Assembly (NCBI GenBank): GCA_964454335.1 | Contig: CAYVVT010000001.1 | Span: 432,083 to 496,082 of the forward strand | DNA: 64,000 nucleotides | DNA from: an uncultured Lentisphaeria bacterium | GTDB taxonomy: Bacteria > Fidelibacterota > UBA8477 > JABMPR01 | Reading direction: 5' to 3' | Shown: piece after piece, positions 45,906 through 64,000 of the stretch | Position numbering within the stretch: the stretch's first letter is position 1 | Layout: every line of letters begins with the position of its first letter | The notes under the pieces: model-generated | The model's input: the letters and a program-made list of their open reading frames with translations, nothing else | Told to the model about the DNA's origin: nothing | Database searches by the model: none | Position numbers and translations under genes: made by a program

Positions 45906-48194
45906 TCAGCTATCCTGGCCTTTGGCCTCCAGTCCTTCGAGGATCTCTTCAGGTCTGACAGGCAGGTGGCGTATGCGGACTCCGCAGGCATTGAAGATGG
46001 CATTGGTCACAGCAGGAGCAGGGGCGTTGATGGGTATTTCAGCGACAGCCTTGGCGCCGAAGGGACCGGTAGGTTCGTGCGATTCGACAAAGCGAACCAC
46101 CATCTCAGGCATATCGATAGCCGTATAGATATGATAATTTAGAAAATCAGTATTCTGTGGTCGTCCCTCATCGTCAAAGGTCATGAACTCAGTCAGTGCC
46201 ATACCCAGAGCCTGGGGGATGGCGCCCTCAGCCTGACCTTCTGACATCTGGGGGTTGATGATCTGGCCGCAATCACTGATGGATACCACTTTTACGACCC
46301 GGACCAGGCCGGAGCGAGTGTCCACCTCGACCTCGGCAAAGGTGGCATTGAAGGGTGGCGGTGAATCATAGCTCATGTGCGAAGCGCTGGCCATGATCTG
46401 CTGCTGTTCTTCCGTATAGAATGCCTTCGTGCAGATCTCACCGTAGCTGAGTTCTGCCTTGGCCCCCTTCAGAACGTCACCCTCGAATTCAGCCAGGGGA
46501 TCACCCAGCAGATTCCGGCCAGTCTCAAGGATGGATGCCCTGATCTGTTCTGCCGCTTTTTTCACTGCACCACCGGAGACATAGGTGGTACTCGACGCGT
46601 ACGCGCCGGTATCGAAGGGAGTCATATCCGTATCTGATGAATAGATGATGATCTTCTCGAGATCCACCTCAAGGATCTCGGCAGCGATCTGTGACAGGGC
46701 CGTATCCGATCCGGTACCCAGGTCAGTGGCACCTACCTGCAGATTGAAACTGCCATCCTCGTTCAGCTTGATGAAAGCAGCGCCCATATCGATACCTGGG
46801 ATCCCCGAACCCTGCCCGGCAATGGCCAGACCGACACCTCGTTTCAGATGACCATCCTGTTCAGATGATCTGATCTGATCCCAGCTGCTTAATTTCTGGC
46901 CCTGCTCCAGGCAGGCCTTCAGTTCAGTACTGTGCAGGATCTGCTCATGACCCTCGCGACCCTCACCCAGGATCCGGGCGATGGGCAGGTCGTCGCCGGT
47001 CTTGTGGATATTCTTGAGACGCAGTTCCACGGGATCAATTCCCATTTCATGAGCGATCTCGTCCACCAGGCTCTCCAGGGGGAAGAAGGCCTGGGGTGAG
47101 CCATAACCCCGGTATGCGCCGGCGATGGGCAGGTTGGTATACACCGCATCACCGTTCACACGGTTATTGAGAGCATTGTATATGGACAGGCCTTTCTGTG
47201 CGGTCACGGACATGACGGTAAGGGCATGGGTGCCATAGGCACCGGAATTCTCCAGGATATCCATGTCGATGGCCTGGAAAAGACCATCCTCATCCACACC
47301 GATCCTCAAGGTTATTTTCTGGGGATGCCGGGTCCGGGCTGCATGGAATTCCTCCTCCCGGGTGTACATGATCCGGGCCGGACGGCCGGTCCTCATGGTC
47401 ACCGCCGCAACCACTTCCTCATTCAGGATCTCCTGCTTTCCACCAAAACCACCGCCGATGCGAGGTTTGATCACCCGGATGCGTGAAACCGGTATGTCCA
47501 GTACTTCAGCCACGATTCGCCGAACATGGAAGGGAACCTGCGTGGAGGTCCTGATGATCAAGCGCTCATTGGCGTCCAGCCAGCTGATACTGATGTGCGG
47601 TTCAATATGGGCCTGTTGAACATAGGGTGTGCTGTATGTACCCTCAAAAACGTGTGCACTATCGGCGAGAGCCTGCTCAACATCACCATGCTGGGCCTCG
47701 ATATGAGCGGCAATATTATGCTGAGCGTCATGGATACCCTTCTTCGCCGGCTCCGGATGGATCTGTGTCCCGGCCGTTCTTGATTCCTCGGGATCCAGGA
47801 TCAGTGGAAGGGCTTCATAATCGACCTTCACGAGTTCCAGTGCTTCCTGCGCCGCTTCCGGAGTTTCCGCAGCGATGATGGCCACGCGATCACCCACGAA
47901 GCGGACGACCCTATCCAGCAGGGTGGTATCCCGTGGAGAAGGTTCGGGGTAACCCTGTCCAGCGGTGGTGTAATAGTGGGATTTGTAATCCTTGTGTGTC
48001 AGAACGGTAACCACGCCCTCGTGTGCCAGAGCCGCCGATGTGTCAATGCTCCGAATCCTGGCGTGGGCCCGGGGACTGTGCAGGATCTTCACATACAGCA
48101 GGTCCCGCATTTCCAAATCATCAGCGAAGACCGGCTTGCCATGTGCAAGCGCACGGCCATCGACCCGAGCCGTCTTCTGGCCTATAGATCTCAT
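45906..48194 (-). CDS. Xanthine dehydrogenase / aldehyde oxidase-family molybdopterin-binding subunit (set 1).
   Basis: A 762-aa Mo-hydroxylase large subunit with typical N-terminal and catalytic blocks. Confidence 0.9.
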   Translation of the reverse strand: MRSIGQKTARVDGRALAHGKPVFADDLEMRDLLYVKILHSPRAHARIRSIDTSAALAHEGVVTVLTHKDYKSHYYTTAGQGYPEPSPRDTTLLDRVVRFVGDRVAIIAAETPEAAQEALELVKVDYEALPLILDPEESRTAGTQIHPEPAKKGIHDAQHNIAAHIEAQHGDVEQALADSAHVFEGTYSTPYVQQAHIEPHISISWLDANERLIIRTSTQVPFHVRRIVAEVLDIPVSRIRVIKPRIGGGFGGKQEILNEEVVAAVTMRTGRPARIMYTREEEFHAARTRHPQKITLRIGVDEDGLFQAIDMDILENSGAYGTHALTVMSVTAQKGLSIYNALNNRVNGDAVYTNLPIAGAYRGYGSPQAFFPLESLVDEIAHEMGIDPVELRLKNIHKTGDDLPIARILGEGREGHEQILHSTELKACLEQGQKLSSWDQIRSSEQDGHLKRGVGLAIAGQGSGIPGIDMGAAFIKLNEDGSFNLQVGATDLGTGSDTALSQIAAEILEVDLEKIIIYSSDTDMTPFDTGAYASSTTYVSGGAVKKAAEQIRASILETGRNLLGDPLAEFEGDVLKGAKAELSYGEICTKAFYTEEQQQIMASASHMSYDSPPPFNATFAEVEVDTRSGLVRVVKVVSISDCGQIINPQMSEGQAEGAIPQALGMALTEFMTFDDEGRPQNTDFLNYHIYTAIDMPEMVVRFVESHEPTGPFGAKAVAEIPINAPAPAVTNAIFNACGVRIRHLPVRPEEILEGLEAKGQDS

Positions 48195-48640
48195 GATCCC
48201 TGCTCCAGGGCTGCCTTGACAGGTTTCAGATACCCGGTGCAGCGACAGAGGTTGCCGGCCAGGCTGTCTCTGACGCTTTCAGCCGATAACGGTTCACCCG
48301 ATCGTTGCAAGGCGGTAAGCGAGACGAGCATGCCCGGAGTGCAATAGCCGCACTGGATGGCGCCCTCACTGATGAATGACTCCTGTAGTTTCCGGGTCTC
48401 GCTTGATCCGTTCAGGCCTTCGAGAGTCTCGACACGCTTGCCCTGGATACTGTGCAAGAGCAACAAACAGGCATTATAGCACCGGTCATCCACCAGGATG
48501 CTGCAGGTACCGCACTCGCCCTTGTCACAGCCTTGTTTGACACTGAAGAATGCCTCTGAACGCAGAAACTCAAGCACCGTCATTCCAGGATGGGCATCGG
48601 TCTCGACAGCTTTGCCATTGAGCTGAAAGCTTATCCGCAT
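48191..48640 (-). CDS. [2Fe-2S]-binding subunit of a molybdenum hydroxylase (set 1).
   Basis: CDKGECGTCSILVD...CGYCTPGM. Confidence 0.9.
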   Translation of the reverse strand: MRISFQLNGKAVETDAHPGMTVLEFLRSEAFFSVKQGCDKGECGTCSILVDDRCYNACLLLLHSIQGKRVETLEGLNGSSETRKLQESFISEGAIQCGYCTPGMLVSLTALQRSGEPLSAESVRDSLAGNLCRCTGYLKPVKAALEQGS

Positions 48641-49389
48641 AAGGACTCCTGCAGTTCGGAAAGCGTCTTGAGGATAAGCTTATGCTTGTATTCGATAGAG
48701 CCATAATGATCTGTCACCAGCTCCTTGCTGAGGATCCCGGCAGCGGTCTTGATGTCCTCGGGGGTTGGTTCACAGGAAAATTCCAGCGAGTGAATGGAGT
48801 TGAGCCTGCCACCGAGTGAAACACGCAAAGCCTGTCCCCTGCGGTTGGCCACGAGAATGAGAAAGGCCGGAGCAGAAGGCAGTAGAGCGAATCGCCGGAT
48901 CCTGCTGTCTCTCAGATCCTCGGTTTCGACCTGCACCGCATCGATGATGCCCTTGCCGTCCCAGTTGTGGATCAGGACCGGTTCCGACTCGGCCAGCAGC
49001 AATCTGGCCTGGACAGCATGGAGATAGATATTCAATTCAGAATCGGGTCGACTGTGACCGATCTCGCCACCGAGTTGACGCTGGTTGCGAATATTCTTCG
49101 AAAAACATGATTGACGTGCAGCCTCGGCGAGTTCTGCAGGCTTTCCAGCATGAAAATGTTCGATGATCTCCTGCAGACTGAGACCTGCACCAAGCTTTAA
49201 GAATTCATTGGTCTGCTGGATGTCTCGGCTCACCAGGGTGGATACGTCCACCAAGATCCTGGTCTCCGGGTTCTGCTCAGTGTTCATGTAACTCCCGCCG
49301 GCCAAGATCGCTGCCCCTGGCTTCTGCAGAGCAGCCAGCGCTTGGGCGAAGTCGGGAGGCGACAGGATCTGTTCAATGGAAGACCACAT
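48631..49389 (-). CDS. FAD-binding subunit of a molybdenum hydroxylase (set 1).
   Basis: A CO-dehydrogenase flavoprotein-like domain (AAILAGGSYM...); the start was moved to MWSS to abut the upstream stop. Confidence 0.8.
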   Translation of the reverse strand: MWSSIEQILSPPDFAQALAALQKPGAAILAGGSYMNTEQNPETRILVDVSTLVSRDIQQTNEFLKLGAGLSLQEIIEHFHAGKPAELAEAARQSCFSKNIRNQRQLGGEIGHSRPDSELNIYLHAVQARLLLAESEPVLIHNWDGKGIIDAVQVETEDLRDSRIRRFALLPSAPAFLILVANRRGQALRVSLGGRLNSIHSLEFSCEPTPEDIKTAAGILSKELVTDHYGSIEYKHKLILKTLSELQESLCG

Positions 49390-63166: not shown

Positions 63167-63170
63167 TGGT

Positions 63171-64000
63171 TCAGACTCCCCCTTCGGTGTTGTCTAAAAG
63201 TTCTAGGATCATTTCGGGATGCATGGGAATGTGATCCACAGGCCTCTTGATTGCATTGCTCACTGCATTTGCGATCGCTGCTGCCGTGGGTATGATGGCT
63301 GGTTCACCAATCCCCTTGGCCCCCCAGGGACCCAGCGGCTCAGGATCCTCAACGATAATTGTCTCTATTTCACCGACATCTGCCGCAGTGGGCAGCAGAT
63401 AGGTGCTCAGATTGTCGTTCATAACTTCACCACCACTGTATTGCAGGTCTTCGGTCACAGCCCAGCCGATGCCCTGGACCGTGCCGCCCTCTACCTGTGC
63501 TTCCAGACCGGCGGGATTGATGGCCCGGCCAACATCGTGGGCTGCCCAGATCTTTTGCACACGAACGCGCCCGGTGATGGTGTCCACCTGTACGGCGGCA
63601 ATATGAGTGGCGTAGGAATAGGTGAAGTAGGCTTCGCCTACCCCTTTTTTTGCATCATAGGTCAATTCCGGGACATGCCACCAGCCAAGGCTTTCCATGT
63701 TGAGATTGTTCAGAAAAAGGAAGTCCGCAATCTCCTTCAGGGAGGTCTGCTTTCCTGATCCCTTATCATGGGCAATTCCCTGTGAAAGTTCCACCGACTC
63801 CGCTTCACAGTTCATCAGGCGGGCTGCGGCATCGATGATACCGGCTCGTAGTTGACGGGCGGCATCACGAATGGCGTTCCCGGTCATCATCACGTTCCGA
63901 CTGGCTACCGAGGGTCCGCTGTCCGGGACCTGGTGCGTATCGGTGGGCAGCACATGGATGTCTTCGATCCGGATACCCAGTGCTTCGGCCGCCATCTGCG
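63171..64000 (-). CDS. Molybdopterin-binding subunit of a second xanthine-dehydrogenase-family enzyme. Only the C-terminal part lies in the window; the gene continues past its 3' edge.
   Basis: The C-terminal Mo-hydroxylase domain (…GIGEPAIIPTAAAIANAV…) with the frame open to the window end. Confidence 0.8.
   Translation of the reverse strand, partial: QMAAEALGIRIEDIHVLPTDTHQVPDSGPSVASRNVMMTGNAIRDAARQLRAGIIDAAARLMNCEAESVELSQGIAHDKGSGKQTSLKEIADFLFLNNLNMESLGWWHVPELTYDAKKGVGEAYFTYSYATHIAAVQVDTITGRVRVQKIWAAHDVGRAINPAGLEAQVEGGTVQGIGWAVTEDLQYSGGEVMNDNLSTYLLPTAADVGEIETIIVEDPEPLGPWGAKGIGEPAIIPTAAAIANAVSNAIKRPVDHIPMHPEMILELLDNTEGGV

Follow-up and report, generated by a model that had tools for sequence, protein, structure and literature searches.

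We analysed a stretch of 64,000 nucleotides (the window) from an uncultured bacterium (assembly GCA_964454335.1, contig CAYVVT010000001.1, positions 432,083 to 496,082), the minus strand of which carries, at window positions 45906-64000, what is probably the larger part of a single purine-fermentation operon of about 20 kb. From its gene content the operon is likely to encode the reductive (2,8-dioxopurine) pathway of urate degradation, a pathway of an already known kind, in a form that is variant in its lower half. Our tentative proposal is that this lower half is an unrecognised and environmentally widespread one, in which CT4, a carbamoyltransferase derived from aspartate carbamoyltransferase (ATCase), would act on N-carbamoyl-2,3-diaminopropionate and two pyridoxal phosphate (PLP) enzymes, PLP-488 and a threonine synthase-like protein (ThrC-like), would act on diaminopropionate, possibly with an SsnA-like hydrolase that opens both rings.

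In the pathway as described for the ygeW-xdhD region of Escherichia coli and for its clostridial counterparts, XdhD-YgfM reduces urate to 2,8-dioxopurine, YgfK and SsnA carry out dearomatisation and opening to ureidomethylhydantoin, and HyuA opens the hydantoin to give 2,3-diureidopropionate (Liu et al., 10.1101/2025.04.24.650524; Li et al., 10.1101/2025.05.19.654654). YgeW phosphorolyses one ureido group, the carbamoyl phosphate yielding ATP via carbamate kinase, YgeY hydrolyses the other ureido group, and YgeX converts 2,3-diaminopropionate to pyruvate and ammonia (Liu et al., 10.1101/2025.04.24.650524; Li et al., 10.1101/2025.05.19.654654). The molybdenum (Mo) enzymes of the pathway need SelD, according to the same two papers. 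In the window, YgfK, YgeW and carbamate kinase all score over their family cut-offs and stand with an XdhD-type Mo subunit, which agrees with the match to the E. coli region claimed in the first-pass annotation of this DNA; its reading as a variant pathway is likewise borne out, in that hyuA, ygeY and ygeX are absent and other enzymes are found in the operon. The genes of the lower half are, with scores from hidden Markov models (HMMs):

61871-63166, minus strand: SsnA-like amidohydrolase, diverged (NF005540, 381 bits against a cut-off of 444; TIGR03314, 365 against 455.5)
60888-61841, minus strand: CT4, ATCase-derived carbamoyltransferase of 317 aa (TIGR00670, 256.9 bits against a cut-off of 236.95)
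59918-60868, minus strand: carbamate kinase of the YqeA/ArcC type (NF009007, 397 bits against a cut-off of 266; TIGR00746, 360 against 358)
58718-59896, minus strand: YgeW, a knotted carbamoyltransferase (NF005538, 631 bits against a cut-off of 453)
57239-58714, minus strand: PLP-488, PLP enzyme of the CysK/cystathionine beta-synthase (CBS) fold, 488-491 aa, with N- and C-terminal helical extensions (assigned by HMM and fold)
56007-57239, minus strand: ThrC-like PLP enzyme of 410 aa with a CxxC...CxxC zinc ribbon (TIGR00260, 179.9 bits against a cut-off of 167.1)

CT4 as a candidate replacement for YgeY

Evidence for the role of CT4 comes from the gene neighbourhoods of relatives. PLP-488 homologues occur in at least 574 GTDB species genomes, of which 80 loci were retrieved (the species loci), and CT4 gave at least 549 metagenome matches, of which 80 loci anchored on CT4 were examined; neighbouring genes were annotated by tblastn and by clustering of open reading frames (ORFs). 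Synteny in the Marinimicrobia-type operon extends to every gene outside a cassette located between the SsnA-like gene and PLP-488, with the order adenine deaminase, Mo760 (one of two Mo subunits), SsnA-like, cassette, PLP-488 and ThrC-like, followed by an iron-sulfur (Fe-S) subunit, a flavin (FAD) subunit, YgfK, 8-oxoguanine deaminase, an FAD-like subunit, a second Fe-S subunit and the other Mo subunit, Mo762. Six cassettes were seen: YgeY with YgeW; YgeY with CT2; CT3 and CT1 with carbamate kinase; YgeW with carbamate kinase; CT4 and CT2 with carbamate kinase; and CT4, carbamate kinase and YgeW, which is the cassette of the window. In L009 and L013-L018, a YgeY with 70-72% identity to its E. 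coli counterpart occupies the slot held by CT4 and carbamate kinase in the window.

The counts are in keeping with an exchange of this kind. YgeY and carbamate kinase are each present in 17 of the 80 species loci and in none together; exactly one carbamoyltransferase accompanies YgeY in 16 of its 17 loci, and two are found in 8 of the 17 loci with carbamate kinase. No YgeY-type cassette of the species loci contains a carbamate kinase, and the kinase of those relatives would therefore lie elsewhere. In the CT4-anchored metagenome loci YgeY was found in 0/80, a second carbamoyltransferase directly after CT4 in 45/80, carbamate kinase in 36/80 and SsnA in 22/80. Urate clusters of Acidimicrobiales also contain CT4, and an unrelated cluster has it in a pair with a true YgeW.

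These loci (e.g., L012:6925-9968 and L044:6990-9969; L011-L090) hold three more classes of carbamoyltransferase, namely CT1 (about 345 aa), CT2 (about 327 aa) and CT3 (about 358 aa). None of the three reaches a curated cut-off, their scores lying just under those for ornithine and N-acetylornithine carbamoyltransferase, and the fixed pairs CT3 with CT1 and CT4 with CT2 come with carbamate kinase.

The first-pass annotation had taken the second carbamoyltransferase for a duplicate. CT4 is only 22% identical to E. coli YgeW by tblastn and is of ATCase descent, and so is not a copy of YgeW; about 45% of its positions, as estimated by eye, are identical to Pyrococcus abyssi ATCase. In an alignment with E. 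coli PyrB it keeps S52-R56, R105, H134, Q137, R167 and L267, and with them the site for carbamoyl phosphate and the binder of the alpha-carboxylate; the STRTR, HPTQ, Arg105, Arg167 and LPR motifs are retained, and it passes TIGR00670. Unlike PyrB, it has K83 replaced by D, K84 by Y (Y89), T228 by E and R229 by P (P231), four exchanges that do not vary within the family; no pyrI or pyrC is nearby, and its setting is without exception a urate-type cluster. Ten family members, 78-85% identical, share the motifs TRAGDFY[Q/M]E and YMEPVVQ, with Q in 9/10 and M in 1 at the variable position. In ATCase, Lys84 and Arg229 bind the carboxylates of aspartate. The loss of these two residues together with a gain of acidic residues fits a substrate with a cationic side chain, and 3-amino-2-ureidopropanoate is N-carbamoyl-aspartate with an amino group in place of the beta-carboxylate.

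Because a YgeY orthologue occupies the slot of CT4 and carbamate kinase in syntenic relatives, and because YgeY and carbamate kinase were never found together, we give somewhat better than even prospects to the reading that CT4 replaces YgeY and would phosphorolyse the remaining ureido group.

PLP-488 and the ThrC-like enzyme as a candidate replacement for YgeX

The 491-aa enzyme next to YgeW had been described as TrpB-like, which has to be given up: no TrpB model matches it, and by HMM and fold it belongs with CysK and CBS. Its core groups with cysteine synthase, cystathionine beta-synthase and beta-cyanoalanine synthase at 22-27% identity (AlphaFold model, pLDDT 80.7; profiles), and the Schiff-base lysine (K107), an Asn loop of sequence PSTGNY and the Gly-rich phosphate loop are all retained. 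Relative to CysK and CBS it has helical extensions of about 80 aa at the N-terminus and about 100 aa at the C-terminus. No curated family cut-off is reached (TIGR01139, 92.5 bits against 351). PLP-488 is 67-75% identical across Neomarinimicrobiota, Cloacimonadota, Bacteroidales, Lentisphaeria, Elusimicrobiota, Caldiserica, Aminicenantes and others, the window's protein being 74-75% identical to those of Neomarinimicrobiota metagenome-assembled genomes, and a branch at 42-47% identity is found in soil and actinobacterial clusters. Urate-pathway genes accompany it in 62/80 loci, and a ThrC-like gene lies directly downstream in 27 loci; in the window the two genes share 1 nt, at the stop of PLP-488 and the start of the ThrC-like gene.

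The ThrC-like protein passes TIGR00260 and reaches 280 bits against a cut-off of 303 for NF006050. In this protein and 38 homologues (39 sequences), STGNA stands for the STGNT of three solved threonine synthases, L, T or M stands for the Arg of NP[HY]R[LI]EG, and GDG[CV]I stands for GNAGN, with Asp242 invariant. In the Thermus thermophilus structures the STGNT, Arg and GNAGN positions are reported to bind the substrate phosphate. An anion pocket made acidic in this way would suit the 3-amino group of diaminopropionate. Like YgeX, CysK/CBS and ThrC, both PLP enzymes of the window are of fold-type II (PF00291). The SxKDR lysine motif is retained in the ThrC-like protein, which differs from them by its added zinc ribbon, and neither PLP enzyme of the window is a YgeX orthologue.

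YgeX was found in 0/80 PLP-488 species loci. Where YgeX does appear in the wider set of loci, it is in L007 at the ThrC-like position, with a PLP-489 retained, and in L162 directly upstream of CT4, at the usual site of the PLP-488-like gene; in most CT4 clusters the PLP-488-like enzyme is the only PLP enzyme in view. YgeX thus turns up only in loci that lack one of the two genes or have it in another place, and we give an even chance to the reading that the translationally coupled pair of PLP-488 and ThrC-like replaces YgeX and would convert 2,3-diaminopropionate to pyruvate and two NH3. The two proteins might divide this work as two stereoisomer-specific lyases, as a racemase and a lyase, or by beta-replacement followed by deamination. 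The first-pass annotation had set the pair in place of ygeX, ygeY and hyuA together; these three genes are indeed absent, and the pair is likelier to stand for YgeX only, CT4 and carbamate kinase being in the YgeY slot.

Several observations weigh against the lower half as we propose it. The co-occurrence counts among species and metagenome loci are not phylogenetically independent. In L019, L023 and L024 the cassette consists of YgeW and carbamate kinase without YgeY or a second carbamoyltransferase, so that the cassette does not in every case hold a second gene for ureido cleavage. L007 holds YgeX and PLP-489 together, so PLP-488 is not simply redundant with YgeX, and PLP-488 is also found away from urate genes, or alone. 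Finally, there is no hydantoinase in the window or in the 10 kb upstream, which leaves a gap in the proposed pathway.

The loci away from urate genes provide a second context for PLP-488. In L051, L072, L084 (L084:4294-8444) and L087, from Eubacteriales and Aminicenantes, it lies beside a 380-aa protein of the guanidino-group-modifying superfamily with a weak match to the arginine deiminase Pfam family, and two of these four loci (L051 and L084) also contain a ThrC-like gene, an APC-type permease, a D-aminoacylase-type amidohydrolase and several peptidases. A module for the breakdown of compounds of the diaminopropionate type would fit this context.

A different role for PLP-488 has to be weighed here, in which the enzyme stands outside the carbon flux, either as a racemase for D-intermediates or in a cysteine- or selenocysteine-type beta-replacement that supplies sulfide or selenide, with the ThrC-like protein alone as the lyase analogue. 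The retention of PLP-489 in L007, where YgeX takes the ThrC-like position, points this way, as do the proposal that the pathway intermediates are R-configured (PMC12990295; 10.1101/2025.04.24.650524), the presence of D-aminoacylase-type and D-aminopeptidase-like genes in the second context, and the H2S-forming CysK-like enzyme among the closest solved relatives of PLP-488. Against it, PLP-488-like enzymes are the sole PLP enzymes in view in most CT4 clusters, YgeX of L162 lies at the PLP-488-like site, and PLP-488 is grouped with the genes for ureido and diaminopropionate conversion and lies apart from the divergent yqeB, yqeC and mocA. We consider this role doubtful.

Order of ureido removal and ATP yield

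If CT4 takes the place of YgeY, its descent bears on the order in which the two ureido groups are removed, over which Liu et al. and Li et al. disagree and which is acknowledged to be unresolved (PMC12990295). In the scheme of Liu et al. the 2-ureido group falls to YgeY (10.1101/2025.04.24.650524), the enzyme that CT4 would replace. CT4 has lost only side-chain binders. ATCase carbamoylates the alpha-amino group, and the Arg167 that CT4 keeps is its alpha-carboxylate binder. Ornithine and N-acetylornithine carbamoyltransferases, the next-best HMM models for YgeW, carbamoylate the side-chain amine. This supports the order of Liu et al., in which the 3-ureido group would be taken by YgeW first. 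YgeW would remove the 3-ureido group to give carbamoyl phosphate, CT4 would phosphorolyse the 2-ureido group of 3-amino-2-ureidopropanoate, its most likely substrate, and both carbamoyl phosphates would pass to the single carbamate kinase. If this is true, CT4 doubles the ATP yield of ureido cleavage, giving two carbamoyl-phosphate-derived ATP per urate instead of one, and its ancestry would settle the disputed order as 3-ureido by YgeW and then 2-ureido.

In the reverse order, that of Li et al., the 2-ureido group would go first, cleaved by YgeW with albizziin as the product, and the 3-ureido group would be left for phosphorolysis by CT4. Albizziin was seen by Li et al. after HyuA and YgeW/UacY (10.1101/2025.05.19.654654), and the acknowledged uncertainty over the order leaves room for it; the descent of CT4 from an alpha-amino carbamoylator with Arg167 kept, the resemblance of YgeW to enzymes of side-chain amines and the assignment of the 2-ureido group to YgeY all speak against it, and we judge the reverse order unlikely.

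That the extra genes are housekeeping pyrB, thrC and cysK genes which merely lie inside the operon is highly improbable: CT4 does pass TIGR00670 (257 bits against 237) and the ThrC-like protein TIGR00260 (180 against 167), yet K84 and R229 are lost in the one and the Thr, Arg and Asn positions of the solved threonine synthases in the other, neither pyrI, pyrC nor any thr gene lies nearby, the association with urate genes holds across phyla, and PLP-488 has only 92 bits against the CysK cut-off of 351. The first-pass annotation had named ordinary carbamoyltransferases of the arginine or pyrimidine pathways as a finding that would overturn it. Formally CT4 is such an enzyme by its TIGR00670 score, but the objection fails on the two lost residues and on the constant setting in urate clusters; the ThrC-like protein likewise passes TIGR00260 yet is without residues that the three solved threonine synthases all have.

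The SsnA-like protein and the hydantoinase step

The SsnA-like protein of the window is 34% identical to E. coli SsnA, and its position beside the Mo subunit is kept in all syntenic relatives. The SsnA-like gene claimed at first pass is present in a conserved place, and its product falls under the family cut-offs of both TIGR03314 and NF005540. It presumably opens the ring of dihydro-2,8-dioxopurine. HyuA was not found in any Marinimicrobia-type locus examined, and clusters in which PLP-488 does occur with HyuA-like genes are those of Bacteroidales, of Cloacimonadota and of soil. In operons without HyuA the SsnA-like proteins make up a separate subtype, with 48-54% mutual identity and about 34% identity to E. 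coli SsnA. Because they share this subtype, it is conceivable that the diverged SsnA-like enzyme is a bifunctional ring opener; that the gene for the HyuA step lies elsewhere in the genome is conceivable to the same degree.

As a candidate for the missing hydantoinase we also considered the 8-oxoguanine-deaminase-like gene, which was rejected, as it co-occurs with a HyuA-like gene in at least 8 CT4-anchored metagenome loci. Among the 80 species loci the 8-oxoguanine-deaminase-like gene (17 loci) and the HyuA-like gene (10 loci) share none.

The two molybdenum enzymes and the upper pathway

The remaining genes of the operon belong to the upper pathway:

63171-64000, minus strand: Mo760, molybdopterin subunit of the xanthine dehydrogenase (XDH) type, C-terminal 274 aa of 760, truncated at the window end (XdhA/PucD-type HMM matches)
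55526-55999, minus strand: 2Fe-2S subunit, partner of Mo760 (XdhC_XDHase, 178 bits)
54687-55529, minus strand: FAD subunit of the XdhB type, partner of Mo760 (XdhB, 190 bits; 33% identity to E. coli XdhB)
51428-54679, minus strand: YgfK, 2,8-dioxopurine reductase (Fe-S flavoenzyme), 1083 aa (TIGR03315, 902 bits against a cut-off of 835)
49391-50788, minus strand: amidohydrolase of the 8-oxoguanine deaminase family, putative urate feeder (NF006055, 607 bits against a cut-off of 532)
48631-49452, minus strand: diverged FAD-binding subunit, YgfM-like (PF00941, 54 bits; best NCBIfam TIGR03312, 49 bits)
48191-48640, minus strand: 2Fe-2S subunit, partner of Mo762 (HMM)
45906-48194, minus strand: Mo762, XdhD-type molybdopterin subunit (TIGR03313, 611 bits)

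Two Mo-hydroxylase sets had been claimed at first pass, and both are present, the first with only the C-terminal 274 aa of its Mo subunit inside the window. Mo762 has 39.5% identity with XdhD, against 36.6% with XdhA. Its 'ILGEGREGHE' aligns to 'AIGEGKAPT' of XdhD, a loop specific to XdhD that contains Glu606 and is not present in XdhA or Mo760; the C-terminal catalytic Glu is kept in all four proteins. Li et al. link Glu606 of XdhD to the orientation of urate (10.1101/2025.05.19.654654). Because the Glu606 loop is present in Mo762 and absent in Mo760 and XdhA, Mo762 with its 2Fe-2S and diverged FAD subunits is presumed to be the urate reductase (2,8-dioxopurine dehydrogenase), and a xanthine dehydrogenase would be formed by Mo760 together with its 2Fe-2S and XdhB-like partners.

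A reading of these enzymes as carbon monoxide (CO) dehydrogenases or aldehyde oxidoreductases, in an island unrelated to purines, has next to nothing to recommend it apart from the fact that neither Mo subunit reaches an equivalog cut-off (XdhA model, 720 bits for Mo762 and 496 for Mo760 against 780): their best matches are to the XdhA, XdhD and PucD families, CO dehydrogenase and aldehyde oxidoreductase models score far below, and the neighbours are adenine deaminase, 8-oxoguanine deaminase, YgfK, an SsnA-like protein, YgeW, YqeB and YqeC. The first-pass assignment to purine-type Mo enzymes thus stands.

In the upper pathway, as homology and synteny indicate, adenine deaminase, 8-oxoguanine deaminase and the XDH-type Mo/Fe-S/FAD enzyme would funnel purines to urate, the XdhD-type Mo/Fe-S/FAD enzyme would reduce urate to 2,8-dioxopurine, and YgfK with the SsnA-like hydrolase would carry out dearomatisation and ring opening. 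On the same grounds, YgeW would release carbamoyl phosphate from one ureido group, for carbamate kinase to turn into ATP. The products of yqeB, yqeC, mocA and xdhC would mature a selenium-dependent Mo cofactor.

Extent of the operon and its host

From 64000 down to 45906 the genes follow one another on the minus strand as an unbroken run of tightly spaced or overlapping ORFs; these and the HMM scores place every gene listed at first pass where it had been reported. A gene for protein-L-isoaspartate methyltransferase comes after the Mo762 end of the run. By tblastn, YgeW of the window is 66% identical to its E. coli counterpart and the carbamate kinase 45% identical to YqeA; YgfK is 38% identical to E. 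coli YgfK, aligned from residue 1, and is also called at 1083 aa in the metagenome contig L001. The true start of the YgfM-like FAD subunit is probably near 49380 and not at 49452, because relatives measure 240-255 aa.

L001 is identical to the window where the two overlap, and in it the island runs about 10 kb past the window end. It contains the full 760-aa Mo760 gene, with adenine deaminase ahead of it (TIGR01178, 580 bits against a cut-off of 472), and, divergent from the operon, yqeC, a mocA-like cytidylyltransferase gene, yqeB and a gene for an xdhC-like maturation factor. A check for yqeB and yqeC had been suggested at first pass, and both are found here just beyond the window end (YqeB, TIGR03309, 266 bits against 220; YqeC, TIGR03172, 117 bits against 73). 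Across the 64-kb window no selD, hyuA, ygeX, ygeY or purine permease was found; the E. coli HyuA and YgeY proteins gave no tblastn match in the window or in L001, and the sole match to E. coli YgeX in the window was the ThrC-like gene at 22% identity.

The host of the operon is probably a marine, Marinimicrobia-like bacterium of the Fibrobacteres-Chlorobi-Bacteroidetes (FCB) group, to judge from the 74-75% identity of PLP-488 to Neomarinimicrobiota proteins and from sorting domains of type IX secretion. Three secreted proteins were observed nearby, namely a GH57-domain protein with a type-IX-secretion sorting domain (window 26540-29152), an S8 subtilase of 1189 aa with a MAM domain (window 12906-16475) and an Amidase_3 protein with Por_Secre_tail (L001:1-1322), and an FCB-group host is therefore supported. 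Acetate kinase and phosphotransacetylase genes lie adjacent to each other at window 35452-37643 on the minus strand; the pair is consistent with a fermentative host in which urate-derived pyruvate would yield acetate and ATP.

Comparison with known systems and consequences for annotation

The window operon shares with the E. coli ygeW-xdhD region and the cluster of Clostridium sporogenes the XdhD-type Mo subunit with the Glu606 loop, YgfK, an SsnA-like hydrolase, YgeW, carbamate kinase, nearby yqeB, yqeC and mocA, and a urate-feeding XDH and deaminase. It differs from them in that hyuA, ygeY and ygeX are missing, the Fe-S and Mo domains are separate genes and not fused, the SsnA-like protein lies under family cut-offs, and CT4, the CysK/CBS-like PLP enzyme and the zinc-ribbon ThrC-like PLP enzyme are added; the host is an environmental bacterium of the FCB group, as opposed to gut Bacillota and Pseudomonadota. 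The UacX/UacY variant of Clostridioides difficile (Li et al., 2025) is similar in that steps are replaced by non-orthologous enzymes and that hydrolytic and phosphorolytic ureido cleavage are exchangeable. The direction is the opposite one, since in C. difficile a hydrolase stands in place of YgeW and YqeA, with no ATP, whereas in the window operon a phosphorolytic enzyme is proposed for YgeY. In the arginine deiminase pathway, as here, phosphorolysis of a ureido group to carbamoyl phosphate leads to substrate-level phosphorylation by a catabolic ornithine carbamoyltransferase and carbamate kinase; the substrate is another one, and for the window operon two consecutive carbamoyltransferases are proposed per kinase.

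In CT4 clusters of soil, peat and actinobacteria (L091:16816-16954, L097-L171) YgfK was found in 0/80. In those of Acidimicrobiales a reductase gene of the Bac_luciferase (F420-type) family lies beside SsnA instead of YgfK, which echoes the Chloroflexota variant of Li et al.

Full-text literature searches, with pathway terms and with Marinimicrobia plus xanthine dehydrogenase, gave no prior description of these variants. None of the literature found describes an ATCase-derived carbamoyltransferase in the YgeY slot, a swapped ureido cassette or the PLP-488 and ThrC-like families, and none describes the reductive urate pathway in Marinimicrobia or other FCB lineages. Both primary papers of 2025 make no mention of a second carbamoyltransferase or of threonine-synthase- or cysteine-synthase-like genes, and searches of their supplements gave no match for the relevant phyla. 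The locus suggests that marine and soil anaerobes join the same upper pathway to a different lower half. The substrates proposed here for CT4 and for the PLP pair are directly testable with compounds already in the two laboratories.

The survey of Li et al. was seeded from IPR017700, and neighbours were scored at the Pfam level of PF00185 and PF00291 (10.1101/2025.05.19.654654). At this level CT4 is not distinguishable from YgeW, nor the PLP enzymes from YgeX. On our assumption that IPR017700 corresponds to TIGR03314, for which the SsnA-like protein scores 365 against 455.5, the survey probably missed these clusters. The curated cut-offs of TIGR00670 and TIGR00260 misname two of the families, as aspartate carbamoyltransferase and as threonine synthase, and the Joint Genome Institute (JGI) labels many CT4 homologues 'aspartate carbamoyltransferase catalytic subunit'; with at least 574 species genomes for PLP-488 and at least 549 metagenome stretches for CT4, many annotations are affected.

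Other features of the window

Within the operon one ORF stands outside the pathway:

50965-51291, minus strand: 23S_rRNA_IVP ORF, 108 aa, four-helix bundle, an insertion in the gap between YgfK and 8-oxoguanine deaminase

This gap of 640 bp (50788-51428) is the only sizeable intergenic gap in the operon and is low in GC. The ORF is bracketed by 26-nt inverted repeats (50851-50876 and 51390-51415) that are 88% complementary. Equivalent gaps in relatives hold PDDEXK_3 ORFs (L009; family f13, 8 loci), and both kinds of gap ORF look like mobile insertions. A search for a riboswitch or other RNA gave no Rfam match at the gathering threshold in the gap or elsewhere in the window, and none at E<=1 in the gap. 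A scan of 44400-51600 for sigma-70 promoters and terminators gave nothing beyond the shuffled background, with a consensus that may not fit this phylum.

Elsewhere on the plus strand of the window, an ORF of 472 aa (41237-42655) matches no Pfam or NCBIfam model and one of 367 aa (4374-5477) matches no Pfam model. A four-gene group on the minus strand (31619-35257), with a GntR/UTRA regulator, a DUF4954/DUF6819 protein and a gene of the glucosamine-6-phosphate isomerase / 6-phosphogluconolactonase family, is probably an amino-sugar locus.

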